From the NCBI GenBank assembly GCA_009924135.1, contig RFSE01000010.1, forward strand, positions 63 to 64,062: a stretch of 64,000 nucleotides of DNA, given 5' to 3'. This stretch comes from Pseudomonadota bacterium. GTDB lineage: Bacteria > Verrucomicrobiota > Verrucomicrobiia > Limisphaerales > SXTU01. The position numbers were made by a program, and so were the translations under genes. The notes under the pieces were generated by a model that searched no databases, was not told the DNA's origin, and was given only the letters and a program-made list of their open reading frames with translations. Positions 24,592-52,705 of this stretch are shown here, one piece after another (the stretch's first letter is position 1; the number at the start of each line of letters is the position of its first letter).

Positions 24592-24779
24592 GGCGGGACT
24601 GAAAGAGGTGGTTAGCGAGGACCGGATGATCATGGGCGAGTCGAGTGACTGGCGCGTTGCAGGGGGTATTCACAGCCGGGTGCGGCAAGAGGCGGTGCAA
24701 ACTGAAACTTTTCAGTGTTCAGCAAGGCGTTTTCGGTTTTCAGTTCTCCCCAGACACACTGAAAACCGACTACTAAAAC

Positions 24780-35483: not shown

Positions 35484-38400
35484 ATGAAACCCAACTGCGC
35501 TTCCTCCTCTTCCGGCTCTGCGGATCAACTTCACCCCGATTGGAAACCGCGTCGCACCGTTTTCCGCCCGGAGCTGGTCCGGTCTTCGAGTCCCGGCTCC
35601 GCCACTGTTTCTGCCCGGCCGGGCAGCCTGCTGTTCTGGTGGCGGCGGTTGGCCCCGCTGGCCGCGCTGATCGCGCTGCTGCTGCCGGGCGTTCTACAGG
35701 GCGCGAGCGTAACCGTCTCGGATGCCGTCGTTAACCTCGCGAGCAGCGCAGGCGGTGCCAAAAACTACACGTTCACGGATGCCACTTCCGGACAGAGTGT
35801 CACCGTGGCGCTCACACTGACGTCATTCTCTTCGGACCCGGCGGCCGTGCTCTCGTTGCTGGATGGAAACTCCCGGGTAGGCGTCGGAAACCCCAACGTC
35901 GGCGGTGACGGCAATCTCATCGTGTATGGCGAGGGCGTGAACTTCGCCGCTTCGCTGGTGAGCGCCTCTGCTGGAGTGAACGCCGGATCGGTCACCTTCC
36001 GCGTGCAGGGCTTGGGGCTGCGGGCCGTGAGCGGCACGGCACCCCTTTACTGGCAGTCCTCGGCCACGGCCTCGAACGCCTTCACGCTCACGGGCGAGAC
36101 CGTGAACACGCTCGATGCCGCCGGGGCTTCGCTGAACGGCAGCAGCTATGCCGGCCAGCTTGGGTTTTCCGTCAACGACGGTTCCGACGCGCAACTGAGC
36201 GATGCCGGGACGATTGCCGGGCTGGGGCTGGTGTTGAATGTAAGTTTCACGACGAACGGCGTGGTCACGGCCCCGCTCATCACCTCGTGGTTCACCGCTT
36301 ATTCGGGCAAATACGCCCGCATCTACACCAGTGACACGACGAAAAACGCCGGCACGGCGGCCACGGTCTGGACCAACGGCACCACCAGCCAGGCGCTGCC
36401 GGTCTATTCCGGCGTGCAGGAAATCTCCTCCTCGATCAACTGGGTCTATATCCGCAGCTCGGGACTGGGCTCGCACACGATGGGCCCTTGGTATCTGGAT
36501 GCGCAACATCAGCAGCTCTTTCCCAACTTTCCGACCAACCAGAAGGTCTATTACCGGCTGCCCCGCACGCCGAGCGTGCCCGGCACCAAGACTGCCAATA
36601 ACGGCGGGGCCATCGGTTACTTTGTGGATGGCGTGGCGATGTTCAACAGTTGGGACGCCTACTATTGGAACGGCTCGGCCGAAGTGCAGTCCATGGGTAA
36701 TGGGACTGGTTATTGGAACCGTGACGCTTACGTGAACGAAGGCCAGTCCTTCGACGGGAACAACGCTCATCAGGCCGGCGGCCAGCATCACTATCATGCG
36801 AACCCGCCGGCGTTGCGCTTCCTGCTGGGCGATCACGTGGATTTTAATTCCACGACCAAGGTTTACTCGGAATCCACGGCGGCTCCCACGAAGCACTCGC
36901 CCATTCTTGGCTGGGTGGCCGATGGCTATCCGATCTACGGACCTTACGGCTATGCGAACGCCGCCGATGCCAACAGTGGCGTGCGCCGGATGATCTCGGG
37001 TTATGTGCTGCGCAACGGACAGAGCAATACCGTGAATCTGGCATCCACCGGGCGCACGACATTGCCGCAGTGGGCGGTGCGCCTCTACCAAGTCACGGCG
37101 TCTCAGGCCGGTCCCACGGTGAGTCCCCAGTATCCGCTGGGCCGTTACATGGAGGACAACGACCACCTTGGCGATCTTGGTTACACGGCGGGCGTGGATT
37201 ACGACCTCGACGAATACAACGGCCGGTTCTGCGTGACCCCGGAGTTTCCCGGCGGGACATACGCTTACTTCGTTGCAATCAAGTCCGATGGTACGCCCGC
37301 GTTTCCCTACAACATTGGCCGCGGCTATTACGGCAGTCCGACTGGCGGCGCGGTGACGACGTTGAACGAAACCGTCACGACCAATTTCGTCGGGGGCACG
37401 AACATGCCCATACAGCTCGGCGCTCCCGCGAAATCTCCCTCGACCGTCACGCTCATGTGGAGTGCGGTGGACGGTGGAAACTACGATGTCGAATCGCGCA
37501 ACACTTTGGGCACGGGTGCCTGGCAGACCAAGGTGTCCGGCGTGTCCGTCACGGGGATCGTCGCGCAGGCGGCGGACACGTCGGCCGGCAGCGCTGAATA
37601 CTACCGTATCAAGCTCGCCTCGATAGCTGCTTACGACCCCGTCACGGGCACCGTCGCCGGTGGTGGTGGTGGCGGCGGCGGTGGCGGTGGCCAGCCCACC
37701 CCGCCGAGCGTGGGCACTGTGACGCCCAACACGGGTACGGCGAGCGCGTCCGTGACCGTGACGATAAACCTGAATGGCGGGACTAACCTGCCGCCCGCCA
37801 ACGCCACGCCGACCTCGGTCACGCTTGGTACCGCCACCGGCACGGCGGTTTCCTACGATGGCTCAGCCGTGACGGCGACGTTCACGCTGCCGGTGACGAC
37901 CGGTTTGCAGAACATCGTGATTACATTCCCGGCTCCGCCAGCAGGCGGGAACGCGCTGGTCGTCACGGGCACGAATGTCTTTACGGTCAACGTCGCTGGT
38001 GGTGGCGGTGGCCAGCCAACGCCGCCGAGCGTGGGCACCGTGACACCCAACTCAGGCACGGCGAGTGCCTCAGTGACGGTGACGGTGAGCCTGCTAGGCG
38101 GGACCAACCTCCCGCCCGCCAATGCTACACCGACTTCGGTTACGCTTGGGTCTGCCACCGGTACGGCGGTTTCCTACGATGGTTCGGCAGTAACGGCGAC
38201 GTTCACTCTGCCGGTGACGACCGGTTTGCAGAACATCGTGATCTCCTTCCCAGCTCCGCCCGCAGGCGGGAACGCGCTGGTCATTACTGGCACGAATGTC
38301 TTCACGGTTAACGCTGCTGGTGGCGGGGGAACCTCCACCACCACGGCTCCCAATGGCTCGGCTACGCGGGGCACGACGGTGACCGTCACCATCACATTGC

Positions 38401-38645
38401 CCACGAACCCGCCGTTGCCGCCGCTGCTGGGCCAGAACAACCAGACGTTGCTGCCGCAGACCGTGACGCTCGCGGGCATCACCGGCACGAATGTTTCGCG
38501 CCCCGCCCAGGGCACTGTTATTGCGACGTTTGTGATTCCAGCCAATGCCCCCACCGGCGCGCAGAATGTCGTCGTGACCTTTCCCCCGCCTCAGGGAATG
38601 CAGGCGGCCACCTACACCCTGACGGGCGGCGTCACGTTGCACTAG
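35484..38645 (+). CDS. Large secreted YHYH-domain protein with FN3-like module and three IPT/Ig-like C-terminal repeats
   Basis: Signal helix RRLAPLAALIALLLPGVLQGAS. YHYH-domain blocks GGQHHYHANP, GWVADGYPIYGPYGY, LDEYNGRFCVTPEFPGGTYAYFV...FPYNIGRGYYG. Module TLMWSAVDGGNYDVESRNTLGTGAWQ...EYYRIKL. Poly-Gly, then 107-aa repeats. Confidence 0.85.
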   Translation: MKPNCASSSSGSADQLHPDWKPRRTVFRPELVRSSSPGSATVSARPGSLLFWWRRLAPLAALIALLLPGVLQGASVTVSDAVVNLASSAGGAKNYTFTDATSGQSVTVALTLTSFSSDPAAVLSLLDGNSRVGVGNPNVGGDGNLIVYGEGVNFAASLVSASAGVNAGSVTFRVQGLGLRAVSGTAPLYWQSSATASNAFTLTGETVNTLDAAGASLNGSSYAGQLGFSVNDGSDAQLSDAGTIAGLGLVLNVSFTTNGVVTAPLITSWFTAYSGKYARIYTSDTTKNAGTAATVWTNGTTSQALPVYSGVQEISSSINWVYIRSSGLGSHTMGPWYLDAQHQQLFPNFPTNQKVYYRLPRTPSVPGTKTANNGGAIGYFVDGVAMFNSWDAYYWNGSAEVQSMGNGTGYWNRDAYVNEGQSFDGNNAHQAGGQHHYHANPPALRFLLGDHVDFNSTTKVYSESTAAPTKHSPILGWVADGYPIYGPYGYANAADANSGVRRMISGYVLRNGQSNTVNLASTGRTTLPQWAVRLYQVTASQAGPTVSPQYPLGRYMEDNDHLGDLGYTAGVDYDLDEYNGRFCVTPEFPGGTYAYFVAIKSDGTPAFPYNIGRGYYGSPTGGAVTTLNETVTTNFVGGTNMPIQLGAPAKSPSTVTLMWSAVDGGNYDVESRNTLGTGAWQTKVSGVSVTGIVAQAADTSAGSAEYYRIKLASIAAYDPVTGTVAGGGGGGGGGGGQPTPPSVGTVTPNTGTASASVTVTINLNGGTNLPPANATPTSVTLGTATGTAVSYDGSAVTATFTLPVTTGLQNIVITFPAPPAGGNALVVTGTNVFTVNVAGGGGGQPTPPSVGTVTPNSGTASASVTVTVSLLGGTNLPPANATPTSVTLGSATGTAVSYDGSAVTATFTLPVTTGLQNIVISFPAPPAGGNALVITGTNVFTVNAAGGGGTSTTTAPNGSATRGTTVTVTITLPTNPPLPPLLGQNNQTLLPQTVTLAGITGTNVSRPAQGTVIATFVIPANAPTGAQNVVVTFPPPQGMQAATYTLTGGVTLH
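37659..37691 (+). repeat. (GGN)11 simple-sequence tract encoding poly-glycine
   Basis: ggt ggt ggt ggt ggc ggc ggc ggt ggc ggt ggc, in frame within the YHYH protein. Confidence 0.9.
37689..38330 (+). repeat. Tandem 321-bp (107-aa) direct repeat x2 inside the YHYH gene
   Basis: Units start GGCCAGCC(C/A)AC(C/G)CCGCCGAGCGTGGGCAC at 37689 and 38010. They encode GQPTPPSVGTVTPN(T/S)GTASASVTVT...NVFTVN, nearly identical. A third diverged unit follows. Confidence 0.85.
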
Positions 38646-38666
38646 TTCGCCCCAAGTCGATTCGCC

Positions 38667-38861
38667 ATGAAAGCCCCGGCCCTCACCACTGATCAGCGCA
38701 TCGCCCGCGTCTGGGCGCTGTTCACCGTGCTCGCCTTGTTGCTCTGGCTGAGGAATCAGGTGCGTGGTGCGGAGTCCGAAGTGACGGTGGCGATCGAACC
38801 GCGCTTCCGGGGCGAGCCGCTGGTGTTTGACCAGTTGACCTGCACCAACGCGGCCCGGTAG
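38667..38861 (+). pseudogene. 5' fragment (signal peptide + first strands of an MbnP-like domain), ended by an in-frame TAG
   Basis: MKAPALTTDQRIARVWALFTVLALLLWL... then VTVAIEPRFRGEPLVFDQLTCTNAAR*. TAG at 38859-38861 is in the same frame as, and directly abuts, the 38862 ORF. Confidence 0.6.
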
Positions 38862-40532
38862 GTGCTCGCCATCACGCGGCTCGACCTGTTGCTCTCGGGC
38901 CTGGCCGTGCGGCGTACGGACGGCACCTGGTTGGAGAAGAATGACTGGTTTGCCTATCTCAGCGGTCGCGCGGGCCGCACGAACTTCGTGCTGCGTGGCC
39001 TGCCACCGGGTGATTACGACCGGCTGCAGTTCAACATCGGCGTGCCGCCGGATCTGAACCATGCGGCCCCTGCGAAGTTGGAAGAGCGGCATCCGCTGAA
39101 CCCGATGGTGAACGGCATGCACTGGAACTGGCAGGGCGGGTATGTGTTCCTCGCGCTGGAAGGAAGGTTCACTCCGCTCGCGTCGGCAACGGCTGGTTCG
39201 CAAAATCAGTCGGCCAGCGGCTTCTCGTGGCATCTTGCCACGGACCGGCTCTTGATGAATGTGGAGGTGCCCGTGACGCTGGCCTTGTCCGGCGAACGGG
39301 CGGCTGACCGGCGGACCACGCTGCGGGTCGCGCTGGAGCTGGCGCAGGTGTTTGACGGCATAATACTGGATGACGAAACCAGTTCCACCCATTCACGACC
39401 GGAGGACCGGTTGGCGGACAAGTTGCGACAGCGGGTGGAACAGGCGTTTTTACCGGGGCAGCGCGCAGACACGGCCGGCCCGGTGGAAAAGCTGGTGACA
39501 CCGTTAACGGCTCAATCCGGCCCAGTTGTCGGTACGCCTTATCGCTTCACCATGTCCGCCGCCTTTCCCAAGCCCGCGCTGCCGCGTGACAATCCACTCA
39601 CGATGGAAGGCGTCGCACTGGGCCGCCGCCTGTTCAACGACCCGTTGCTCTCACGCGGCGGGAAGCAGTCCTGTGCGTCGTGTCATCAGATGCAGGCCGG
39701 CACGGTGGACGCGGGCAAGGCCTTCAGCGTTGGCGTGGACGGCCAGCCCGGCAAACGCAATGCCATGCCGCTCTACAACCTCGCGTGGAAGTCCGAGTTC
39801 TTCTGGGATGGGCGCGCCAAATCACTGCGGCAGCAGGCGCTCATGCCCATTCAGGATGAATTGGAGATGCATGAAACGCTGGCGAACGTGGTCGGGAAAC
39901 TGAAAGCGGCGGGCGGGGCGGAGAGTTACCACGAGGTGTTTGCGTGGGCGTTTGGTTCGTCTGACATTACCGCTGAACGGGTGGGACTGGCCTTGGAGCA
40001 GTTTCTGCTGACGCTCACTTCCCACGACGCCAAGTTCGACCGGGTAATGCGGCGGGAAGCGCTGTTCACGGCGGAGGAACAACGGGGTTTCGAGCTGTTC
40101 CACACGGAACACGATCCCCGGCGGGGGTTGTTTGGCGCGGATTGTTTTCACTGCCATGGCGGACCGCTGTTTCAGAACGTTGCGTTCGCCAACAATGGCC
40201 TGGACCACGAGCCGCGCGACCTTGGCCGTTACCTCGCCACGGGGCGCGAGGGCGACCGGGGCAAGTTCGCCGTGCCATCACTGCGCAACGTGGAGCTGAC
40301 TGCGCCTTACATGCACGACGGGCGGTTTGCCACGTTGGAAGAGGCCGTGTTCCATTACGTTCGCGGCGTGCGGCACAGCCCGACGCTGGACCCGAACCTG
40401 GCGAAGCACCCACCGGGCGGGGTACGCCTCCCGCCCGAGGATGTGCGGGCGCTGGTCGCATTCCTGCGCACCCTCACCGAAGAGTCGCTTCGCCCAGGCG
40501 CGCGGAACGTAGCGCTTGCGCCATCGCCATGA
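38862..40532 (+). CDS. MbnP-like domain fused to dihaem cytochrome c peroxidase (MbnH/MauG-like); lacks its own signal peptide
   Basis: MbnP-type blocks LAITRLDLLLSGLAVRRTDGTW, GDYDRLQFNIGVPPDLNH, HPLNPMVNGMHWNWQGGYVFLALEGRF. CCP blocks GRRLFNDPLLSRGGKQSCASCH, FFWDGRA, CFHCHGGPLF, PSLRNVELTAPYMHDGRF. Confidence 0.8.
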   Translation: MLAITRLDLLLSGLAVRRTDGTWLEKNDWFAYLSGRAGRTNFVLRGLPPGDYDRLQFNIGVPPDLNHAAPAKLEERHPLNPMVNGMHWNWQGGYVFLALEGRFTPLASATAGSQNQSASGFSWHLATDRLLMNVEVPVTLALSGERAADRRTTLRVALELAQVFDGIILDDETSSTHSRPEDRLADKLRQRVEQAFLPGQRADTAGPVEKLVTPLTAQSGPVVGTPYRFTMSAAFPKPALPRDNPLTMEGVALGRRLFNDPLLSRGGKQSCASCHQMQAGTVDAGKAFSVGVDGQPGKRNAMPLYNLAWKSEFFWDGRAKSLRQQALMPIQDELEMHETLANVVGKLKAAGGAESYHEVFAWAFGSSDITAERVGLALEQFLLTLTSHDAKFDRVMRREALFTAEEQRGFELFHTEHDPRRGLFGADCFHCHGGPLFQNVAFANNGLDHEPRDLGRYLATGREGDRGKFAVPSLRNVELTAPYMHDGRFATLEEAVFHYVRGVRHSPTLDPNLAKHPPGGVRLPPEDVRALVAFLRTLTEESLRPGARNVALAPSP

Positions 40533-40703
40533 GGCCATTTTTTCACTTTGCTCGTGTGAGCAAACGGCGGACGGATCGGTTTAATTCGTATGCACGATCC
40601 GTCCGCTGTGTCTCTTTTCGTGCCGGGGCGACGCGGTCTGGCCGGAGATTTCTTTGCTGCGTTGTTCCCGGTGGTCCGTGTTAGATTGCCCGCATTCTTC
40701 ATC

Positions 40704-41717
40704 ATGATGTTAAGCCCTTGCCCTTCACGATTTGCTCTCCCGATGGCCGGACTTGCGTTGTTCGCGGGTGTGCTGGTCGCCAGTGCCCAGCCCCGGCCGG
40801 ATGAGCCGCGTGGTCCTGGTGGTCGCAATGGCGAGAAGATGGGCAAGCAATACGCCGCCCCGGCGGGGGATGGCCAGAGTCCCGGCGCGAACCAGGTGAG
40901 CATCGTCGTCGAGGGGGGCTTTCGCGTGATCCGCGCCAACGGGCTGCCGGATCATGCGCCGGGTCAGTTTCCCAATCGCGGCAACCCGAATGTGATTGCG
41001 GCGCAGAAGTACAACTACCGCATCCCGCTTCAGCCCAAGGAAAACCCGCAGTTCACCCCGGTGCGGATGCACCCCTTTGGGGTTGCCCTCAACGGCGTCG
41101 TCTTCGATCCCGGGGCGGCGGAGTGGTGGCAGATGGACCCGCGCTCGGGCTGGACCCTCGACCCGATCAGCGGCTCGCAGAAGCTGGGCATCGACCGGCA
41201 CAATGCGCATGTGCAGCCCAGCGGGGCATATCATTACCACGCGTTGCCGACGGGGTTGATCGAGCGGCTCACGGGCGGCAAGGAAAAGATCGCCCAAGTT
41301 GGCTGGGCGGCGGATGGCTTTCCCATCTACGGGCCGTGGGGCTACAGCGAGGCCAAGAGCACGAACAGTGCGTTGAAGCGGTTGAAGTCCAGCTACCGCC
41401 TGCGCGAAGGCACGCGCGCCAGCGGACCCGGCGGGAAGTTCGATGGCAGTTACGTTGAGGATTTCCAGTATGTCAACAGAGCCGGCGATCTGGATGAGGC
41501 AAATGGGCGATTTGGTGCCACCCCGGAGTTTCCCCAGGGCACTTACTACTACGTTCTGACCGATGATTTTCCCTTCATCCCGCGTCAATACAAAGGCACG
41601 CCGGACAGCAGCTTTTTCCGACATGGCCCGCCCCCCATGCGATTCGGAGCTGGTGATGTGGGCTTCCGGGGTGGTCCGGGATCGAAAGGACCGCCGCCCG
41701 GAAAAGATGGCAGGTAA
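40704..41717 (+). CDS. Secreted YHYH-domain protein
   Basis: Signal peptide MMLSPCPSRFALPMAGLALFAGVLVASAQ. GAYHYHALP, GWAADGFPIYGPWGY, LDEANGRFGATPEFPQGTYYYVLTDDFPFIPRQYKG. Gly/Pro/Arg-rich N- and C-terminal tails. Confidence 0.85.
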   Translation: MMLSPCPSRFALPMAGLALFAGVLVASAQPRPDEPRGPGGRNGEKMGKQYAAPAGDGQSPGANQVSIVVEGGFRVIRANGLPDHAPGQFPNRGNPNVIAAQKYNYRIPLQPKENPQFTPVRMHPFGVALNGVVFDPGAAEWWQMDPRSGWTLDPISGSQKLGIDRHNAHVQPSGAYHYHALPTGLIERLTGGKEKIAQVGWAADGFPIYGPWGYSEAKSTNSALKRLKSSYRLREGTRASGPGGKFDGSYVEDFQYVNRAGDLDEANGRFGATPEFPQGTYYYVLTDDFPFIPRQYKGTPDSSFFRHGPPPMRFGAGDVGFRGGPGSKGPPPGKDGR

Positions 41718-41735
41718 GCGCATGAACCTTACAGT

Positions 41736-43409
41736 GTGCTTGTGAGTGCGACGCCCTCCGGGTCAACCCCAGAACAGCCGGATCAACCCCGCCCCGACAG
41801 CGAGGACAGCGAAACTTTACCCCGTGAGGCCGCGCATCCCAGCGGCTCCAGCGGCTCGGCCGCGATGAAGTTCCGCCCCCCGGTGCGCGATCTCTCCGGC
41901 TCCCAGCTGGGCGAATACCGGCTCGTCCGCAAGATTGCCGAAGGCGGCATGGGCGAGGTCTATGAAGGGGTCCAGCTCAAGCTCGACCGGCGGGTCGCCG
42001 TAAAGCTCCTGGCCGAGCAGCTCGCGCGCGAACCTGAGTTCCTCGCCCGGTTTGAGCGCGAGGCCAAGTCCGCTGCGGCGCTCAATCACCCGAATGTGTT
42101 GCAGGTCTATGACTTCGGCTGCGCGAACGGGCAGAATTATTTCGTGATGGAACTGGTGGACGGGCTGGATCTCTCCCTGTACGTCAAGGAACATGGCAAG
42201 CTGGCCGTTCCGGTGGCGCTGGAATATTTCGAGCAGGCGGTTCACGCCCTCCAGTTCGCGGCCCGGCACGCCATCATCCACCGCGACGTGAAGCCCGCCA
42301 ACTTGATGCTCACGGGCGACGGCCGGGTGAAGGTCGCCGACCTCGGTCTCGCCAAAAAATTGACCGACGATTCCGATGTGACCATGACCGGTGTGGGCAT
42401 GGGATCGCCGCATTTTCTCGCGCCCGAGCAGGCGGACGACGCCGCGCATGTGGATCATCGCGCGGACATCTATTCGCTCGGGGTCACGCTGCTGTTTTTG
42501 CTCACGGGCCGGCGGCCGTTTGACGGGGCTTCGAATTTCTCCGTTGTCCTGGCCCACGCGAACAAACCGCTGCCCACGGGCATTGAACTGGGCACGCCGT
42601 TGCCCGATGAAATCGAGCGTTTCATCAAGCGCATGACGGCCAAGACGCCCGAGGCCCGGTACCAAAGCTACGAGGAACTGCTCGCCGACTTGCAGCGCGT
42701 GAAGGCGGGGCAGGGCCCCCGGCAGGACTGGGGGCAGGTCCTGAAGAATTCAAAGACGGTATGGATCACCGGCGCGGGTATTATGGCTTTGGTTGCGCTT
42801 GTGTTCGCCGCCCCGTGGATAGGGTCCGACCGGAAACCAACCGCCAGCGAATCCGAGCGACAAACGATCCAGCCCTCGCCGCCGGGTGATCGTCCGGAAC
42901 GTGCTGAGCCCCGCCCGCCATCCCAAGGTGATCGGCCGGGCTTCGGGGACCCGAGGGAAAAGGGCAAGGGCGGGGCGGGTAAGATGGATTTGGGCGGTGG
43001 TTTGCGTCCCCCCTGGCCACGGCGGCCACCTCCCGATCGGTATCCGCTGCGCGATGGTCCAATTCCGCAGATGCTCGCCGAGGCGGACGCCTATGCTGCC
43101 GCCAACAAGGAGGAGTATGTGGAAATTATCCACCGTTACGGACAGATCGAAGAAAAAGCTACCGGCACCCCGTGGCAAAAGGAGGTCGAGCGCCGTTTTG
43201 ACCAGGCTCAGGACCGGTTGCAGGCGGCCTCCAGTGCCTATATTAAACAAACGGAAGCCAAGATGGAACCATTGTTGCAAGCCGGCAAATATGAAGAGGC
43301 CTACCAGCTCTGGCGGGATTTTCCCTTGCGCATCCAAACTCATGAAACCGATCAGGAGGTTTTGCAACTGCTGCGCCGCCGTCTGCCGCCGGACTTTGTG
43401 CCCCGATGA
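41736..43409 (+). CDS. Hanks-type Ser/Thr protein kinase with one TM helix and an extracytoplasmic Pro/Gly/Arg-rich + helical domain
   Basis: G-loop EGGMGEVYEG, VAVKLL, HRDVKPANLML, DLGLAK, SPHFLAPEQ. TM helix VWITGAGIMALVALVFAAPWI. GTG 41736 or ATG 41865 as start. Confidence 0.9.
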   Translation: MLVSATPSGSTPEQPDQPRPDSEDSETLPREAAHPSGSSGSAAMKFRPPVRDLSGSQLGEYRLVRKIAEGGMGEVYEGVQLKLDRRVAVKLLAEQLAREPEFLARFEREAKSAAALNHPNVLQVYDFGCANGQNYFVMELVDGLDLSLYVKEHGKLAVPVALEYFEQAVHALQFAARHAIIHRDVKPANLMLTGDGRVKVADLGLAKKLTDDSDVTMTGVGMGSPHFLAPEQADDAAHVDHRADIYSLGVTLLFLLTGRRPFDGASNFSVVLAHANKPLPTGIELGTPLPDEIERFIKRMTAKTPEARYQSYEELLADLQRVKAGQGPRQDWGQVLKNSKTVWITGAGIMALVALVFAAPWIGSDRKPTASESERQTIQPSPPGDRPERAEPRPPSQGDRPGFGDPREKGKGGAGKMDLGGGLRPPWPRRPPPDRYPLRDGPIPQMLAEADAYAAANKEEYVEIIHRYGQIEEKATGTPWQKEVERRFDQAQDRLQAASSAYIKQTEAKMEPLLQAGKYEEAYQLWRDFPLRIQTHETDQEVLQLLRRRLPPDFVPR

Positions 43410-45485: not shown

Positions 45486-46316
45486 GTGAAAAACGAGAAC
45501 CTACCAGAGGCGGGCGGAAAACCGGAGGCCCAACCGGTCCGCGACTGGGTCGCCTCGACCGTGCGGTGGGGGACTTTGGGAGTCAGCGTGGTGGTGGCGG
45601 TCGTGGTGGTTTCCTGCGCCACGGTCACCCGGACGGTGGTCGAGATGCCGACCATTCCCGGGGCCGAGTTCGTGGGGAACCAGAACTGCGCGCAGTGCCA
45701 CGCGGAGACGGTCCGGGATTTCAAGACCTCCAGCCACGCCAAGCTACAGGCCAAGGGCACCAACGCCGTTAACCTTGGCTGCGAAGGCTGCCATGGCCCG
45801 GGTAGTTTGCACGCTCAGGCCGGTGGCGGACGCAACAACATCCTGAATCCACGGCGCGACGCCGAGACGTGCTTCAAGTGCCATCTCGACAAACGGGGCG
45901 AATTCTCCCTCCCGCACCATCACCCGGTGCTGGAAGGCAAGGTGAGCTGCGGCGATTGTCACCATCCCCACAAGGGTGACGCCATCGCGGGTGGAGGCAC
46001 CCACCTCGCCTCGGAGCACGAGACCTGTGGCCGGTGCCACACGGCCCAGCGTGGGCCGTTCGTCTTCGAGCACGAGGCGGTGCGGGAAGGCTGCACCACC
46101 TGCCACAAGCCGCACGGCTCGGTGAACCGCCGGATGCTTACGGAGCGCAATTCCAACCTGTGCTTCAAGTGCCACTTCCAGCAGCAGACGGCGGCCGGCA
46201 AGGTCTTCAATGGCGGGGTTGATCACACTTCGTTCCTCAAGCGCGGCACCTGCTTCAGCGGCGGCTGTCACGAGGCGGTCCATGGTTCCAACATTGGTTC
46301 ATCCCTGCGGTTCTGA
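45486..46316 (+). CDS. Multihaem c-type cytochrome, 7 CxxCH + 1 CxxxxCH (octahaem), probable lipoprotein; MtrA/PioA/MtoA-like periplasm-to-barrel cytochrome
   Basis: CAQCH, CEGCH, CFKCH, CGDCH, CGRCH, CTTCH, CFKCH plus CFSGGCH. Lipobox-like VVVSC after a hydrophobic helix. C-terminal ...CHEAVHGSNIGSSLRF. GTG start. Confidence 0.9.
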   Translation: MKNENLPEAGGKPEAQPVRDWVASTVRWGTLGVSVVVAVVVVSCATVTRTVVEMPTIPGAEFVGNQNCAQCHAETVRDFKTSSHAKLQAKGTNAVNLGCEGCHGPGSLHAQAGGGRNNILNPRRDAETCFKCHLDKRGEFSLPHHHPVLEGKVSCGDCHHPHKGDAIAGGGTHLASEHETCGRCHTAQRGPFVFEHEAVREGCTTCHKPHGSVNRRMLTERNSNLCFKCHFQQQTAAGKVFNGGVDHTSFLKRGTCFSGGCHEAVHGSNIGSSLRF

Positions 46317-46317
46317 A

Positions 46318-48471
46318 ATGGAGAACGTCATGAAAACCCCAGCAAATCGCCCTCTCAATCCCTCGGTCGAAAGCCGGCATGGCGCGTTGGTGCTCGCGGT
46401 GGCACTGGCCGGCGGTTCGGTGGCCTCCGCCCAAACCGTGACCAACAACGTGGCCGGGGCCAAGCCTGCGGCCGAGGCCAACCCGGCCGAGGAGCCGGTG
46501 AACTGGATCACCCTGGGTGCCGGGGGCGTGTCCACGAGCGGCAACCGTGCGGCGTTTGAGGAACGCTGGGGCAGATCGCAGGGAGTCATGGGTGGCTTGC
46601 AGGACTTTCATTACGAGTTGTTGTTTGGGAAGAAGGGGATGCTGGAACTGGACGGCAAGGCCATGTACGGCCAGCAGGATTACTCGGTGAAGCTGGGCGT
46701 GGCGGACCCGGATGTCGGGTTCCTGCGCGGCGGGTTCAAACAGTCGCAGACCTGGTACGACGGCAGCGGCGGGTATTACCCGGCCACGGGCAAGTCGTTT
46801 TCCCTCTACAGTGACGAACTGAGTTTGAAACGCGGCGAGTATTGGGTCGAAGGCGGCCTGACCCCGCCGGATGGGCCGATGCTGACGTTGAAACTGGCCC
46901 GCGAGTATCGCCGGGGCACCAAGGATTCGCTCATCTGGGGCGATTCGACCCAGGGCGGCACCGCGCGCGGAATGGTGCCCAGCTTTCGTGACCTGAATGA
47001 GTTGAGAAACATCATCATCGCCGACTTGAAACACACCGTCGGCAAGACCGATGTGGGCATCGGCCTGCGGTATGACAAGGTGGACAACAACGACGCGCTC
47101 AAGGAACACCGGAAGCCCGGGGAAGCGGGAGCGGATCGGTATGTGACCCAGCGGGACCTGTTTCAGGCGGACATGCTGAATTTCCACGGCTTCACCGAGA
47201 CGCGCTTCAATGACGCGGTGATGCTGACCACGGGCTATTCCTACACCCGGCTGAACACCGATCTTGGCGGCAGCCGGATTTATGGTGCTGGTTACGATGC
47301 GGTTTACTCCAAGACCTCGGTGAACCGGCAGTTCCATGACGAGGGTTACTACAATCTCACCGGCGGCTCGATTGTGGACCAGTATGTGATGAACCTCGCA
47401 CTGCGGCTCGAACTGGCAGAGAACCTGGTGTTGATCCCTTCGTTGCGGGCGGAAAAGATTGATACCACGGGCAGCACCTCTTTCACCGAGACCTCCGTGG
47501 GAGCGGGGCCAGGCTTTGTCACGGCCGAGAGCAACCTGTTGAATTCACGTCAGAACGGTTTTTTGACGGTTTCCGAAGCCATGGAGGCCCGCTACACGGG
47601 CTTGCAGAACTGGCTGCTCTACGCCCGGGGCGATTGGTCGGAAGGCGATGGCTATCTGCGCGAGACGGAACAGGACCTCACCGCCGGAACAACGGGCATC
47701 AACCGCAGCACGGACTCCGAGCGATTCACGCAGAAGTACACCTTTGGTGCCAACTGGTATCCGCTGCGGAAGCTTCATTTCGCCGCCCAGTTCTACCACA
47801 AAAACGTCGAGAACGATTACACCCATCTGGTGGATTCGACGCCCAACACCAGCGGGGACCGTTATCCGGCCTACCTGCTGGCGCACCATCTCACTACGGA
47901 CGATTTCAACGTGCGGGCGACGTGGCGGCCCTTGCCCAATGTCACCTCGGTGACCCGGTATGACTACCAGATTTCCAGCATCGACACCTACCCGGATGGG
48001 CTGATTGGCATCGAGAGCGCTCAGACCACGGCGCACATCATCAGCCAGACCCTGACCTGGGTACCGTGGTCGCGGCTCTTCCTGCAGGGTACTTTCAGTT
48101 ACGCGCTGGACTCCACCACCACGCCAGCCAGTTCGCTCACGGGCGGGGCGGCCGGTCTAGTCAGCGACGCACGCAATGACTACTGGCAGGCAACGGCCGC
48201 CGCGACATTCGTGGTGGATGACAAGAGCGATTTGAAGGCCAGTTACTTCTATTACCGGGCCAACAATTTCATCGATAACTCGGTTTACAGCATGCCTTAC
48301 GGCACGAGCGGCAATGACCACACGGTGAACGTCAGCCTCGACCGCAAGTTCAGCAAGACCGTGAAGGGCACCATCAGCTATGGCTTTTTCCGTCATCGCG
48401 ATGACACCACTGGCGGGCTGGATAATTACACCGCCCACACCATTTTTTCGTCCATCACCTACCGTTTCTAA
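46318..48471 (+). CDS. Large outer-membrane beta-barrel (about 717 aa), MtrB/PioB-like porin partner of the octahaem cytochrome
   Basis: Signal peptide ...GALVLAVALAGGSVASAQT. Long series of alternating-hydrophobic strands rich in Y/W/G/D/N/T. Terminal ...FSSITYRF (aromatic C-terminal residue of OMPs). ATG lies 1 nt after the cytochrome stop. Confidence 0.75.
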   Translation: MENVMKTPANRPLNPSVESRHGALVLAVALAGGSVASAQTVTNNVAGAKPAAEANPAEEPVNWITLGAGGVSTSGNRAAFEERWGRSQGVMGGLQDFHYELLFGKKGMLELDGKAMYGQQDYSVKLGVADPDVGFLRGGFKQSQTWYDGSGGYYPATGKSFSLYSDELSLKRGEYWVEGGLTPPDGPMLTLKLAREYRRGTKDSLIWGDSTQGGTARGMVPSFRDLNELRNIIIADLKHTVGKTDVGIGLRYDKVDNNDALKEHRKPGEAGADRYVTQRDLFQADMLNFHGFTETRFNDAVMLTTGYSYTRLNTDLGGSRIYGAGYDAVYSKTSVNRQFHDEGYYNLTGGSIVDQYVMNLALRLELAENLVLIPSLRAEKIDTTGSTSFTETSVGAGPGFVTAESNLLNSRQNGFLTVSEAMEARYTGLQNWLLYARGDWSEGDGYLRETEQDLTAGTTGINRSTDSERFTQKYTFGANWYPLRKLHFAAQFYHKNVENDYTHLVDSTPNTSGDRYPAYLLAHHLTTDDFNVRATWRPLPNVTSVTRYDYQISSIDTYPDGLIGIESAQTTAHIISQTLTWVPWSRLFLQGTFSYALDSTTTPASSLTGGAAGLVSDARNDYWQATAAATFVVDDKSDLKASYFYYRANNFIDNSVYSMPYGTSGNDHTVNVSLDRKFSKTVKGTISYGFFRHRDDTTGGLDNYTAHTIFSSITYRF

Positions 48472-48492: not shown

Positions 48493-48831
48493 ATGAACTC
48501 AAAGCAAACCCTCATCGTAACCACCGTCACATTTCTCCTGGCCGCCGCTCCCTCCTTGCTGGCGGCCGATGTCGCGGAAAACTGGACCAAGAATTGCGGC
48601 TCCTGCCACGGTGCCGACGGCACGGGCAAAACCAAGGCCGGGCGCATGGCAGGGGCGAAGGATCTCACTGATGGGGCCTACCAGAAGCAATTCACCGACG
48701 AACAAATGCTTCAGCGTCTCAAGGATGGCGTGACCGACAAGGGCAAGGAGAAGATGAAGCCCTATAAAGGCGTGCTCTCCGACGATGAATTGAAAGCGTT
48801 GGTCGCCAAGGTCCGGACATTTGCGAAGTAA
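48493..48831 (+). CDS. Periplasmic monohaem class-I cytochrome c
   Basis: Signal peptide MNSKQTLIVTTVTFLLAAAPSLLAA. Single CGSCHGADGTG. Distal KMKPY (Met ligand). ...LSDDELKALVAKVRTF. Confidence 0.9.
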   Translation: MNSKQTLIVTTVTFLLAAAPSLLAADVAENWTKNCGSCHGADGTGKTKAGRMAGAKDLTDGAYQKQFTDEQMLQRLKDGVTDKGKEKMKPYKGVLSDDELKALVAKVRTFAK

Positions 48832-48888: not shown

Positions 48889-49614
48889 ATGAATGAGAAC
48901 CAGAAAACCTCGCTCGCCCTGACCAGTCTGACGGTCCTCTTCAGCCTGGCCGCGCTGGTGTTCTGGATGACGCCTCACGCTGGCACCACGAACAAGAGCA
49001 GCGGGCCATTGGTTGGAACGGCATTCACCAACACCGCCACCTTCCGCCTTTCCGTCGCCGACTTGACGAAGGCGGGTGGCGATGTGTCGGGGCTGGATTG
49101 CTACGCCTGCCACAGCAAGGACAAGCCGGTGGCTCCGAAGTTTGACGCGGCCGGCCGGTTGATTCCTTCGGTCGCTCATCGCGATGTGGTGTTTTCACGG
49201 ATGAATTGCGCCGGTTGCCACGCAGCGTCAGAGAAGGTGGAACTCAAGTTTGATGCCGAAGGAAAAATCCTCACGCCGGCCGCCCACACCAATGACGTGG
49301 CCCGCCACGGTCGCACCATCGGCAATGACCACTGCTTCAATTGTCACGACGCAACAAACCTTACCGAATTGCACACGCCCGGGGGCAAGAAGCTCAAACT
49401 CGCCGACAGCACGCAGCTCTGCGGGAGCTGCCACGGCCCGAGCTATCGTGACTGGGAGGCCGGTCTGCATGGACGACACAATGGCTTCTGGAACGTGAAG
49501 CTGGGTCCGATGGAGCGCAAGGACTGCACCTCCTGCCACGACCCACATGCGCCCGATTTGCCACACCTGAAACCCCTGCCGCCGCCGTTCCGCACGGCCT
49601 TGAGAGGACACTGA
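48889..49614 (+). CDS. Membrane-anchored pentahaem c-type cytochrome
   Basis: N-terminal TM helix LALTSLTVLFSLAALVFWM. CYACH, CAGCH, CFNCH, CGSCH, CTSCH. Confidence 0.9.
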   Translation: MNENQKTSLALTSLTVLFSLAALVFWMTPHAGTTNKSSGPLVGTAFTNTATFRLSVADLTKAGGDVSGLDCYACHSKDKPVAPKFDAAGRLIPSVAHRDVVFSRMNCAGCHAASEKVELKFDAEGKILTPAAHTNDVARHGRTIGNDHCFNCHDATNLTELHTPGGKKLKLADSTQLCGSCHGPSYRDWEAGLHGRHNGFWNVKLGPMERKDCTSCHDPHAPDLPHLKPLPPPFRTALRGH

Positions 49615-49615
49615 C

Positions 49616-50572
49616 ATGGCCGCCAACCCCAACTTGCCGAACCTGGCCTCCCCGCCGCCTCCCGCTGGCGGGACCAGCCGCCGGAGCTTTCTCCGCACAT
49701 CCGCCGCCGTGGCCTCCGGTCTCGCCGCGATGGCCGCGAGCCTGGCCCCGCTGCGTGAACTGAGCGACTTCGGTTCCGTGGAGGAGTTCCTGCAAAAGCA
49801 CTACAAGGAACTAACGCCCGTCGAGATGGAGCAGGCGTTGGCGCGCATCCGCCGCGAGGTCGAGAAGCAGTACGGCCTGCGTCCGCACGTGCGCGATCTC
49901 AAGCCGATGGACGGCGTCGAGTTTGTCTATTGCCTGAACCTCACGCGGTGCATTGGCTGCCGGAAATGCGTTCATGCCTGCGTCGCGGAGAACAACCAGT
50001 CGCGCAGCCCGGAGATTCAATACATCCGCGTGCTCAAGATGCCCAACGGCACCTTCGACATGGAAAAGGGCGACCACCACTACGTCACACCGACCGTACC
50101 GGAAAAGGGTTTTTACTACATGCCGGTGCAGTGCCATCAATGCAAGAATCCGCCTTGCGTTAAGGTTTGTCCCGTGGACGCCACCTGGCAAGAGAGCGAT
50201 GGCATTACCGTGATCGATTACGACTGGTGCATCGGCTGCCGCTATTGTGAGGCCGCGTGCCCCTACTTCGCCCGGCGCTTCAACTTCGCTGAACCCAAGA
50301 TTCCGAAGGAACAGGTCAATCTGGACATGGCCTATCTGGGCAACCGGCCGCGTCACAAGGGCGTGATGGAAAAATGCCACTTCTGCATCCAGCGCACGCG
50401 TGCCGGCAAATACCCCGCCTGCCTCGAAGTCTGCCCCACCGGCGCCCGCAAGTTCGGCAACATTCTTGATCCCGCGAGCGAGGTTTCTCAAATCCTCCGT
50501 AACAAGCGTGTATTCGTGCTGAAGGAGGAGGTCGGGACCCTGCCGAGGTTCTTCTACTACTTTGATGTATGA
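49616..50572 (+). CDS. Tat-exported 4x[4Fe-4S] ferredoxin-type subunit (NrfC/HybA/PsrB-like)
   Basis: Twin-arginine signal TSRRSFLRTSAAVASGLAAMA. Four Cys clusters: CIGCRKCVHAC, CHQCKNPPCVKVCP, CIGCRYCEAACP, CHFCIQR...CLEVCP. Starts 1 nt after the preceding stop. Confidence 0.9.
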   Translation: MAANPNLPNLASPPPPAGGTSRRSFLRTSAAVASGLAAMAASLAPLRELSDFGSVEEFLQKHYKELTPVEMEQALARIRREVEKQYGLRPHVRDLKPMDGVEFVYCLNLTRCIGCRKCVHACVAENNQSRSPEIQYIRVLKMPNGTFDMEKGDHHYVTPTVPEKGFYYMPVQCHQCKNPPCVKVCPVDATWQESDGITVIDYDWCIGCRYCEAACPYFARRFNFAEPKIPKEQVNLDMAYLGNRPRHKGVMEKCHFCIQRTRAGKYPACLEVCPTGARKFGNILDPASEVSQILRNKRVFVLKEEVGTLPRFFYYFDV

Positions 50573-52239
50573 ACCGGACCGCGAAAAACTTTCTGAGCTT
50601 TCTCTGGCGCTGCGGCCAGCTTGCCTGCGAGGGCGACTGGCGGTATTTCGCCTGGACCGGTGCATTGTTCCTGCTCTGCCTCGTGGGCCTCAACGCCTAT
50701 GCGAAACAGTTTGTTCAGGGGCTGGTTTCGACGGACATGACGGACCAGGTTTGCTGGGGCGTTTACATCGCGAACTTCTCCTTCCTCGTCGGCATCGCGG
50801 CTTCGGCGGTCATACTGGTCATCCCGGTCTACCTCTACAAAAACGAGGAGCTTCACGACCTGGTCATCTTTGGGGAACTGCTCGCGATCGTGGCGATCCT
50901 CATGGCGCTGGCGTTTGTGATGGTGGACCTTGGCCGGCCCGACCGCTTCTGGCACATGGTTCCGGGCATCGGCAAATTCAACTTCCCCGGGTCGCTGTTG
51001 AGCTGGGATGTCATCGTGCTCAACGGCTATCTGGCGTTGAATATTTACGTCGCCGCGTACCTGCTTTACTGCCGGTATGAAAAGCGCCCTCCGACAAAGG
51101 CACTTTACCTGCCGGTCATCTTCTTTGGGATTTTTTGGGCGGTTTCCACCATGATGGTTTCAGCCTTCCTTTACGTTGGCCTCGGTGGGCGGCCCTTTTG
51201 GAATTCGGCCATCATCGGCCCGCGGTTTCTGGCCTCGGCCTTCACGGCCGGACCGGCGCTCATCATCCTCGCGTTGCAAGTGGTCCGCCGCCTCACGGCC
51301 CATTCCCTTGCTTCCCCAACGGAGTCAGAGGTCGCCCCACTGGGGGTGCACCATGTCACGAAGGAAGACTGGGACCTGCTCGCCCGGGTTTTGCCGGAAC
51401 TCAGTTCCGCGTCGGAAGAGGCCCGCCTGCGCGTGCTTGCCAGCGGTGCCGTATTGGAAGTCCCCGCCGGCCGCACGCTTCTGCGTCAGGGCGCGCGGAG
51501 CGATGAGGCGTTTTTCGTGCTGCGCGGCCGGGTGTCCGTGAACCGTACCGACGGCGGCCGCATCCGCACCGTCCGCACGCTGGGTCCCGGCGAACAGTTC
51601 GGAGAGATTTCTGCGCTCAACGGCACGCCCCGCACGGCCACCGCCGTGGCCGACCAACATGCCTGGGTGCTCCGGTTGCCCTCGGCTGCGCTTCGCGAAC
51701 TGATGAAATCCCCCGCTCTCGACCATGTCATCCGCGCGCGGATGCACGACCGGCTCATGATCAGCGACCGTGCTTTGCTCACGCTGCGCCACATCGTGCA
51801 GGTCGCGATGATCATCAACGTGTTCCTCTTGCTGAACGAGGTCTTCAAGGAGTTCTATACCGGCAACCTCCATGTCGCCGCTTCGCAATATCTCTACTTT
51901 GGCCTGGATGGGCATCATGCGCTGGTGCCGTGGATTTGGACCGCCATCGTCTGCAACCTGGTTGCTCTCACATTGTTGCTATTGCCGATCAGCACGAGCC
52001 TTAAGTGGCTTGATGTCGCGTGCGTGCTGGCCGTCGTCGGCATCTGGATCGAAAAGAGCATGGGGATCATCATTCCCGGCTTCGTGCCATCGCCTCTCGG
52101 TGAGATCGTGGAATACTCCCCCACCTGGAACGAGACGCTCATCTGCTTTGGCATCTGGGCGTTTGGCCTGCTGTGCTACACCGTGCTCCTGCGCGTCGCC
52201 GTGCCGATCCTGCAGGGGCGCTTCACCCGTATCGCATAA
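50569..52239 (+). CDS. NrfD/PsrC-type integral-membrane quinone-site subunit (about 10 TM) with an inserted cyclic-nucleotide-binding domain
   Basis: NrfD hallmark VMVDLGRPDRFWHM and many TM helices. Residues ~265-395 have a CAP/cNMP fold signature: FFVLRGRVSV...LGPGEQFGEISALNGTPRTATAVA. ATGA overlap with the Fe-S gene. Confidence 0.85.
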   Translation: MNRTAKNFLSFLWRCGQLACEGDWRYFAWTGALFLLCLVGLNAYAKQFVQGLVSTDMTDQVCWGVYIANFSFLVGIAASAVILVIPVYLYKNEELHDLVIFGELLAIVAILMALAFVMVDLGRPDRFWHMVPGIGKFNFPGSLLSWDVIVLNGYLALNIYVAAYLLYCRYEKRPPTKALYLPVIFFGIFWAVSTMMVSAFLYVGLGGRPFWNSAIIGPRFLASAFTAGPALIILALQVVRRLTAHSLASPTESEVAPLGVHHVTKEDWDLLARVLPELSSASEEARLRVLASGAVLEVPAGRTLLRQGARSDEAFFVLRGRVSVNRTDGGRIRTVRTLGPGEQFGEISALNGTPRTATAVADQHAWVLRLPSAALRELMKSPALDHVIRARMHDRLMISDRALLTLRHIVQVAMIINVFLLLNEVFKEFYTGNLHVAASQYLYFGLDGHHALVPWIWTAIVCNLVALTLLLLPISTSLKWLDVACVLAVVGIWIEKSMGIIIPGFVPSPLGEIVEYSPTWNETLICFGIWAFGLLCYTVLLRVAVPILQGRFTRIA

Positions 52240-52243
52240 TAAC

Positions 52244-52705
52244 ATGGCGCACCAACTAACCGCTGACGACGCCCGGCAATCCATGCGTGACCATTGTGCC
52301 GCCAAAGGTCAGGAGGTCCGCGAAAGACTTGGTCCGTACCTCGGCTGGACGGAACTGAACCGTCTGCTCGAAGACCGCAAGTTGGTACGTTACCCCTGCA
52401 CCATCGCCTTCGATTCTTCACCGCTCCAGCCCGAGGAGATGGCGTATGCCGAGCCGCTGGGGGCCCAGCCCGAAGCGGGCTTCCGCATTTGCGTCCATCC
52501 CCGTTTTCAGACCGACCTTGATGCCGTCGTGGCCCTGGTCCTCTACCAGTTGGTGGCCGTGAACTACGGTGACTTCGCCACAGCGGAGGATGCCGAGGCG
52601 TTTGGCAGTGCGGCGGTGGGACTGAGCCGGGACGAGTATTATCAACGGCTTTGTGAACTTGCGGACCAGCCCAGTACGGTCGCTGCCGTTGCTGGCAACG
52701 GTTAG
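52244..52705 (+). CDS. Hypothetical soluble protein (153 aa), last gene of the cytochrome operon
   Basis: ATG 4 nt after the NrfD-like stop (MAHQLTADDARQSMRDHCAAKG...). No signal peptide, no haem or Fe-S motif, no family recognised. Confidence 0.55.
   Translation: MAHQLTADDARQSMRDHCAAKGQEVRERLGPYLGWTELNRLLEDRKLVRYPCTIAFDSSPLQPEEMAYAEPLGAQPEAGFRICVHPRFQTDLDAVVALVLYQLVAVNYGDFATAEDAEAFGSAAVGLSRDEYYQRLCELADQPSTVAAVAGNG

Follow-up and report, generated by a model that had tools for sequence, protein, structure and literature searches.

A 64,000-nucleotide stretch of contig RFSE01000010.1 (assembly GCA_009924135.1, labelled Pseudomonadota bacterium and placed by GTDB in the Limisphaerales, Verrucomicrobiota; hereafter the window) encodes a 556-residue NrfD-type membrane subunit that has a complete cyclic-nucleotide-binding (CNB) domain in the cytoplasmic loop between its sixth and seventh transmembrane helices (TM6 and TM7). 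Profile matches, conservation, topology and the retention of ligand-contacting residues all bear this out. What is new here is a complete CNB domain inserted in an NrfD-type subunit, in one lineage of Verrucomicrobiota.

Many enzymes of anaerobic respiration, among them Nrf, Psr, Dsr, Qrc, alternative complex III (ACIII) and Hyd-2, are anchored by NrfD-type subunits, in which quinone chemistry is believed to be coupled to the movement of protons. To our knowledge, essentially nothing has been reported on their post-translational control. An earlier reading of the sequence, made without database searches, had suggested that the fusion was uncharacterised, and a full-text literature search agrees with this for the texts searched, in which no description of an NrfD-CNB fusion was found. 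A review of the NrfD family mentions neither fusions nor inserts, and the sole match in the literature for NrfD together with cyclic nucleotide binding concerned an unrelated hydrogenase cluster.

Architecture, ligand site and topology

Three profiles identify the two parts of the protein, and each exceeds its curated cutoff. The Pfam NrfD profile (PF03916) matches residues 54-246 (E=5e-34; 118.8 bits against a cutoff of 25.8) and covers the first 205 of 313 profile positions. The insert splits this match, which is unbroken in insert-less relatives. The NCBIfam DsrP equivalog NF045798 scores 379.8 bits (cutoff 350) over two stretches of the protein, while Pfam cNMP_binding (PF00027) matches residues 297-380 (E=2.5e-20; 72.7 bits against a cutoff of 27.5). 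A hydropathy scan and an AlphaFold2 (AF2) model both give ten hydrophobic helices, of which six precede residue 243 and four follow residue 400. These results uphold what the sequence-only reading had described as NrfD hallmarks, namely about 10 TM helices and the motif DLGRPDRFWH (residues 120-129), as well as a soluble insert between helices 6 and 7. The full-length model (pLDDT 71.4, pTM 0.72, with CNB blocks at about 80-87) runs in order from TM6 (213-243) through the CNB domain and a seven-residue linker to TM7 (400-430).

The insert between helices 6 and 7 measures ~152 residues; about 154 residues ending in 'L-M' stand in place of the 'Y-H/R' of insert-less orthologues. It begins with an N-terminal tether, followed by the CNB domain itself. 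The span previously assigned to this domain (51361-51753) corresponds to residues 265-395 and does indeed encode it. In the AF2 model, N3A helices (265-292) lead into an eight-strand beta-barrel (294-371), whose span includes the helix of the phosphate-binding cassette (PBC; 346-351), and the domain closes with helices αB (372-378) and αC (382-392). The FFVLRGRVSV strands that had been noted ahead of the cassette lie at residues 315-324, and the cassette itself is located exactly where it had been placed. Structural comparison with Foldseek matches the insert to the CNB domains of PKG, PKA, MloK1 and CRP at 1.9-3 Å rmsd. A sequence search of the PDB with the insert found PKA, PKG, Epac and MloK1, of which the PKA/PKG-type and MloK1 domains are closest. 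The CNB fold proposed from the motif is therefore backed by the profile scan as well as by the modelled fold. A short loop had also been described as normal at this position in NrfD-type proteins, and this holds for insert-less orthologues and for ActC, the NrfD-like subunit of ACIII.

Conservation across an alignment of 78 homologues is concentrated in the ligand site and at the C-terminal end of the insert. The PBC is the best-conserved segment (mean top-residue frequency 0.88), compared with 0.43 for the N-tether, which is the least conserved, varies in length from 18 to 28 residues and has low pLDDT in part. G341, G345, E346, L350 and R355 are invariant in 78/78 homologues, and three of these (G345, E346 and R355) correspond to the Gly-Glu and Arg residues that contact the ribose-phosphate in CNB domains. 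Such strong constraint on the ligand pocket suggests that the insert likely binds a cyclic nucleotide (cNMP). Judging by PKG and HCN cassettes, an RTA cassette shows no selectivity between cAMP and cGMP. At the other end of the domain, the link between αC and TM7 is seven residues long in all 78 homologues, and three of the seven residues (R395, L396 and I398) are invariant.

The membrane part most closely resembles ActC, which gave the best Foldseek matches (6btm_C, 8k9e_C, 6f0k_C and 6lod_C; E 1.6e-8 to 2.8e-7, TMt 0.61-0.63) and was also the sole solved relative found by sequence search. Residues of the ActC quinone site, on the P-side, are partly retained. Ser164 and Asp169 align with S142 and D147, while His139 is replaced by D120, and all three of these residues are invariant in the 78 homologues. 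Equally invariant is the pair E495-K496, which aligns with Glu394-Arg395 of ActC. Arg395 has been proposed as a proton gate in ActC, with Lys at the same position in DsrP1 (PMC8076601). A quinone-interacting role is predicted for the NrfD-type subunit.

Several lines of evidence support a cytoplasmic location of the insert, as the sequence-only reading had proposed. The adjacent iron-sulfur (FeS) subunit carries a twin-arginine (Tat) signal and the neighbouring cytochromes carry signal peptides. These signals indicate that the FeS subunit and the cytochromes are periplasmic, and that the DLGRPDRFWH loop faces the periplasm as well. Lysine and arginine make up 12/65 residues in the predicted cytoplasmic loops versus 7/105 in the periplasmic ones, consistent with a positive-inside bias. 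In NrfD-like subunits with ten transmembrane helices (TMH), both termini lie on the N-side and the helices follow the order TMH A, 1-4, 5-8 and B (PMC8076601). Applied to the ActC-like fold of the present protein, this order puts the insert in the loop that joins TMH5 to TMH6, which faces the cytoplasm.

Proposed regulation and competing explanations

The fusion protein is part of a three-part module that faces the periplasm, made up of an anchored pentahaem cytochrome, a Tat-dependent 4Fe-4S protein and the 10-helix NrfD-type subunit, in a layout like that of DsrJOP and NrfBCD. It most probably connects the quinone pool with electron carriers in the periplasm or outside the cell. The explanation that best accounts for the observations jointly, and that we regard as probable, is that the quinone-interacting NrfD-type subunit of this module is modulated by cNMPs through its inserted CNB domain.

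The proposed mechanism would begin with the binding of cytoplasmic cAMP or cGMP to the intact PBC. A hinge or lid movement of αB and αC would then pass via the fixed seven-residue linker into TM7 (TMH6), and the movement of TM7 would alter the TMH5-8 bundle with its E495/K496 gating pair and a putative P-side proton half-channel. As an outcome, quinol/quinone turnover, its proton coupling, or both would be switched up or down, while the long and variable N-tether would merely close the loop. The insertion site is the short turn, on the cytoplasmic face, that joins TMH5 to TMH6, the pair of helices with which the second four-helix bundle starts. Together, a floppy N-tether and a rigid, length-invariant αC-TM7 link suggest that the output route runs via TM7. 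Allosteric gating by cAMP or cGMP, which the sequence-only reading had raised, may be the overall effect. The ligand would be cAMP or cGMP, its effect may be positive or negative, and electrons may flow from quinol to the outside or in the reverse direction.

Support for regulation from the cytoplasmic side also comes from an independent source. A sister NrfD lineage (P0126; 51% identity, 420.7 bits against NF045798, 24-member cluster) carries a C-terminal CBS pair; here a nucleotide sensor of the cytoplasmic side has become joined to the DsrP-like NrfD subfamily for a second time, independently. A more ambitious interpretation is that the fusion is the first case of a second-messenger receptor built into a respiratory complex that interacts with quinones. 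Cytoplasmic cAMP or cGMP would then directly gate proton-coupled quinol oxidation or quinone reduction and act as a post-translational valve on electrons moving between the quinone pool and an extracellular conduit, and the CBS-bearing lineage would be a sign of a wider, so far unnoticed principle of ligand regulation in NrfD-type subunits. We put this forward tentatively, as a possibility somewhat short of an even chance.

If cNMP modulation is true, second messengers would act directly on a respiratory complex and not only via transcription factors such as CRP. The protein would also offer a ligand-switchable NrfD subunit for probing the family's disputed conformational and proton-pathway mechanism, and close orthologues with and without the insert provide a ready-made comparison.

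Several observations weigh against regulation of this kind. No nucleotide cyclase was found among the approximately 40 window genes scanned against Pfam, and none was enriched near insert-bearing loci when the open reading frames (ORFs) of 80 related loci were clustered. T356, the neighbour of the phosphate-binding Arg, is variable (T in 54/78 homologues; also L, A and M), so ligand specificity may differ among members. The periplasmic loops have low confidence in the AF2 model. Finally, insert-less orthologues evidently function, and the CNB domain is thus evidently an accessory rather than a core part.

The variability of T356 and the lack of a nearby cyclase gene (in the window and across the 80 loci) would also suit the strongest competing explanation, in which the CNB-fold insert binds a ligand other than a 3',5'-cNMP, or nothing at all, and serves as a cytoplasmic structural or docking module, for instance for the protein of up to 153 residues encoded downstream or for dimerisation of the complex. 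CNB folds with other ligands are known, such as those of CooA (haem), NtcA (2-oxoglutarate) and CprK, and the downstream gene encodes a conserved soluble protein of unknown fold in nearly all Verrucomicrobial loci. That protein is, however, equally present in insert-less loci, which indicates that it is not a CNB-specific partner. Moreover, the Gly-Glu...Arg-Thr-Ala cassette is intact and is conserved more strongly than any other stretch of the insert (G345, E346 and R355 are kept in 78/78 homologues), in a pattern typical of true cNMP binders such as PKA, PKG and MloK1. We therefore consider this explanation unlikely, although it is the best placed of the alternatives.

Slightly less likely again is that the CNB domain does bind a cNMP and thereby controls assembly, stability, localisation or supercomplex formation (through NrfD dimerisation or protection from proteolysis, for example) rather than catalysis. 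CRP-family CNB domains dimerise through their C-helix, which provides a precedent, and the insert is peripheral, sitting on a loop that is dispensable in orthologues. Against this, the rigid, length-invariant link between αC and TM7 and its invariant residues suggest mechanical coupling to the helix bundle rather than a module that hangs free.

Distribution and origin of the fusion

A protein search over 5.8 billion proteins returned at least 7,985 relatives, and the domain architecture was read in the 120 best matches. PF03916 and PF00027 occur together in 120/120 of these (65-100% identity; NCBI, JGI, ENA and Logan assemblies). Far from being rare, the fusion is plentiful in public metagenomes, where it carries generic labels only, such as 'NrfD/PsrC family molybdoenzyme membrane anchor', 'polysulfide reductase NrfD' or 'HybB-like'. 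Clustering at 50% identity places the full-length fusion in one cluster (representative P0121) plus fragments, suggesting one tight and very populous family. The closest available DNA corresponds to about 72% amino-acid identity, a distance at which synonymous sites would be saturated.

Loci were also compared in the best 80 matches among GTDB species representatives, and the insert is present in 35 of them, among them a closed Limisphaerales chromosome of 7.9 Mb and contigs measuring 0.8-1.5 Mb. According to their titles, the insert-bearing carriers are Verrucomicrobiota, spanning Limisphaerales, Opitutaceae/Opitutales, Oceaniferula and others, and the fusion is abundant in Verrucomicrobiota of lakes, peat, soil and groundwater. 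No cultured carrier was found among the matches, all of which are metagenome-assembled genomes (MAGs). Two insert-bearing loci have odd bin labels ('Acidoferrum' and 'Bifidobacteriaceae'), and these bins are probably mis-binned, since their sequences group with Verrucomicrobial ones. The survey envisaged by the sequence-only reading thus gives a taxonomic spread centred on one phylum.

This recurrence leaves little room for an artefact. To read the insert as a chimera of the assembly, a wrongly called ORF or a functionless remnant in decay is extremely improbable, and this reading is refuted for practical purposes: GC content does rise to 0.68-0.71 over 51250-51850 compared with 0.57-0.60 in the flanking TM-coding DNA, and two MAG loci (L030 and L058) have the N and C halves of the gene in different frames, but such a GC shift is expected for an Arg/Ala/Gly-rich soluble domain between hydrophobic segments, and the identical in-frame architecture recurs in independent assemblies, in long contigs and in 35 species-representative genomes, with strong motif conservation and the same junction (L396) in 31/31 full-length insert-bearing loci. 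A chimera, which the sequence-only reading had named as one of the outcomes that would overturn it, is thereby excluded. The split frames of L030 and L058 represent either an assembly frameshift error or a pseudogene.

Insert-less orthologues with 61-71% identity occur in the same operon in Verrucomicrobiota, Elusimicrobiota and Planctomycetota/Phycisphaerae. Their sequence reads '...RR[VI]T[A]-Y[HR]I[TA]D[KR]ALLTLR...' across the junction, where the turn between TM6 and TM7 is only about two residues long. Residues bordering the insert separate the two forms. At column 396, L is found in 31/31 full-length insert-bearing loci, compared with Y in 23/23 insert-less Verrucomicrobial loci and Y or H in 19/21 outgroup loci. 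Similarly, insert-bearing loci have M or L at column 397 versus H, R or Q otherwise, and column 239 is V in 27/31 of them versus I in 23/23 insert-less Verrucomicrobial ones. Because these junction residues are split by insert state, the alignment speaks for one gain, within Verrucomicrobiota, from an insert-less state that is probably ancestral.

In a neighbour-joining tree built from the non-insert columns, which has no support values and is given no weight here, insert-bearing and insert-less Verrucomicrobial sequences interleave. This could reflect the exchange of alleles by homologous recombination over highly conserved flanks, or poor resolution. Recombination or repeated loss may lie behind the present distribution.

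Gene neighbourhood and relation to known systems

The fusion gene lies in an operon of redox proteins, the features of which are given in Table 1 together with the segments of the fusion protein.

Table 1. Positions in the window of the operon genes and of the segments of the CNB-bearing NrfD-family protein
Feature	Coordinates	Strand	Details
DmsE/GSU2203-like periplasmic octahaem cytochrome	45486..46316	+	276 aa; 7 CXXCH + 1 CX4CH
Putative outer-membrane porin	46327..48471	+	~714 aa; signal peptide, C-terminal ...ITYRF
Monohaem cytochrome c	48493..48831	+	112 aa; signal peptide
Pentahaem c-type cytochrome	48889..49614	+	241 aa; 5 CXXCH, N-terminal hydrophobic anchor or signal
4Fe-4S periplasmic subunit, NrfC/DsrO type	49616..50572	+	318 aa; twin-arginine signal SRRSFLR
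CNB-bearing NrfD-family (DsrP-like) membrane subunit gene	50569..52239	+	556 aa
N-terminal amphipathic helix and TM1-TM6 (= TMH A, TMH1-4, TMH5)	50569..51297	+	residues 1-243
N-terminal tether of insert	51298..51360	+	residues 244-264
CNB domain	51361..51744	+	residues 265-392; profile and AF2/Foldseek
Phosphate-binding cassette FGEISALNGTPRTATAVA	51598..51651	+	residues 344-361
αC-TM7 linker	51745..51765	+	residues 393-399
TM7-TM10 (= TMH6-8, TMH B)	51766..52236	+	residues 400-556
Soluble protein directly downstream of NrfD gene	52244..52705	+	140-153 aa; conserved

Over the 80 loci, the conserved core consists of a cytochrome c, the pentahaem cytochrome, the FeS protein, the NrfD-type subunit (with or without CNB) and the small soluble protein. 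The pentahaem cytochrome gene precedes the FeS gene in almost all related loci. The FeS protein contains 4Fe-4S dicluster domains, and the stop of its gene is overlapped by the start of the NrfD-family gene by four bases (ATGA). When all ORFs of the 80 loci were clustered, no genes specific to insert-bearing loci were found. The lone 'specific' cluster proved to be an antisense ORF within the insert and was discarded as an artefact.

Upstream, the operon adjoins a possible route out of the cell. The putative porin has no match in a Pfam scan, and its start codon is uncertain, as the ORF may open as early as 46210. A porin and eight-haem cytochrome pair is found within 8 kb in about 45% of Verrucomicrobial loci of both kinds. 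A Verrucomicrobia gene cluster encoding a novel porin and an eight-haem periplasmic cytochrome has been proposed to function in extracellular electron transfer (He et al. 2017, PMC5615132), and the pair in the window, matched by description, appears to fit this type. With the operon beside a putative extracellular-electron-transfer conduit, regulation of the NrfD-type subunit may bear on humic and iron redox cycling in anoxic, carbon-rich environments.

The small soluble protein encoded downstream occurs in nearly all Verrucomicrobial loci, insert-bearing and insert-less alike. Weaker homologues (37-47% identity) are found in Planctomycetota loci, some of them 1-2 kb further downstream, and invariant residues include R36-Y37-P38-C39, H72-P73 and N94-Y95-G96. 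The protein belongs to no Pfam or NCBIfam family, and its AF2 model (pLDDT 92.6) has no fold match in the PDB (best E=1.4). It could act as a partner in the cytoplasm or help to assemble the module.

Other features of the window were noted in passing. Just upstream of the cytochrome operon (35484-43409, + strand), two YHYH-domain proteins (1053 and 375 aa) flank a 556-aa fusion of MbnP and a di-haem peroxidase (CCP_MauG), followed by a Ser/Thr protein kinase (557 aa), a PQQ_2 beta-propeller (427 aa) and a small EF-hand protein. This cluster looks like a periplasmic system for handling copper or other metals. Further away, a 1307-aa ORF (27126-31049, + strand) has no Pfam match at E<=1e-5, and an 826-aa 'Planctomycete cytochrome' protein (22153-24633, - strand) contains PSCyt1, PSD2-5 and PSCyt3 domains, a set typical of the PVC superphylum. 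Within the wider NrfD subfamily, one protein (P0125, 616 aa) has a multihaem cytochrome region fused at its C-terminus, another (P0215, 573 aa) has a 4Fe-4S protein fused at the NrfD N-terminus, and a third (P0130, 859 aa) has a long extension without annotation.

One of the closest known systems is DsrMKJOP. The fusion protein has its best curated match in DsrP (NF045798), shares its 10 TM helices and has Lys at the gating position, as does DsrP1. As in DsrJOP, its gene comes after those for an anchored multihaem cytochrome and for a Tat FeS protein that resembles DsrO. However, dsrM, dsrK, dsrAB and dsrC were not found among the approximately 40 genes scanned in the window, the cytochrome has five haems instead of the three of DsrJ, the FeS protein scores 173.8 against a DsrO-model cutoff of 200, and DsrP has no CNB insert. 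Membership of DsrMKJOP was rejected on the basis of the missing dsrMK genes, the haem count and the FeS score.

Similarly, the protein shares with ActC a 10-helix layout of TMH A, two four-helix bundles and TMH B, as well as the aligned Ser/Asp and Glu-Arg/Lys residues. The two differ in that identity is only about 13-16% and the TMH5-TMH6 loop of ActC is short. No ActB (a fusion of molybdopterin-like and FeS parts), ActD, ActE or second NrfD-like ActF was found in the window. With one NrfD-like gene, a 318-aa FeS protein, no protein of ActB size and no ActF, ACIII was rejected too. Identity as an orthologue of NrfD itself was also rejected (TIGR03148; 32.5 bits against a cutoff of 347.6).

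In terms of setting, NetBCD, which is homologous to NrfBCD, offers a close parallel. A passage in PMC8805035 cites NetBCD of Aeromonas hydrophila as the inner-membrane quinol dehydrogenase for MtrCAB. Both systems combine a multihaem cytochrome, an NrfC-like FeS protein and an NrfD-like subunit beside an outer-membrane porin-cytochrome system. They differ in that the porin and octahaem cytochrome of the window are of the Verrucomicrobial type (He et al. 2017) and not MtrAB, and that NetD has no CNB domain.

The CBS-bearing lineage also joins a DsrP-like subfamily protein to a fused cytoplasmic nucleotide-binding regulatory module. It differs in having a C-terminal CBS pair rather than an internal CNB domain, and in its neighbours. 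In the representative locus (L081, 3389-5089), the NrfD-CBS gene follows genes encoding Fer2 (218 aa) and FAD_binding_2 (531 aa) proteins, which indicates that it probably belongs to a different complex. The genes of this locus suggest a flavoprotein/FeS complex that is anchored by an NrfD-type subunit and equipped with a nucleotide sensor.

Finally, membrane transport or energy-converting proteins with their own cytoplasmic CNB domain and canonical PBC are known from the MloK1, SthK, HCN and CNG channels and from SLC9C1. In these proteins, the CNB domain is C-terminal and is coupled via a C-linker at its N-terminal side. The present fusion differs from them in having its CNB domain in an internal loop, with a floppy N-tether, a rigid C-terminal link and a redox complex as host. 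Its output path, unlike that of HCN and MloK1, where coupling runs via the linker preceding the CNB domain, would resemble that of CRP and Epac, where the C-helix drives what follows.

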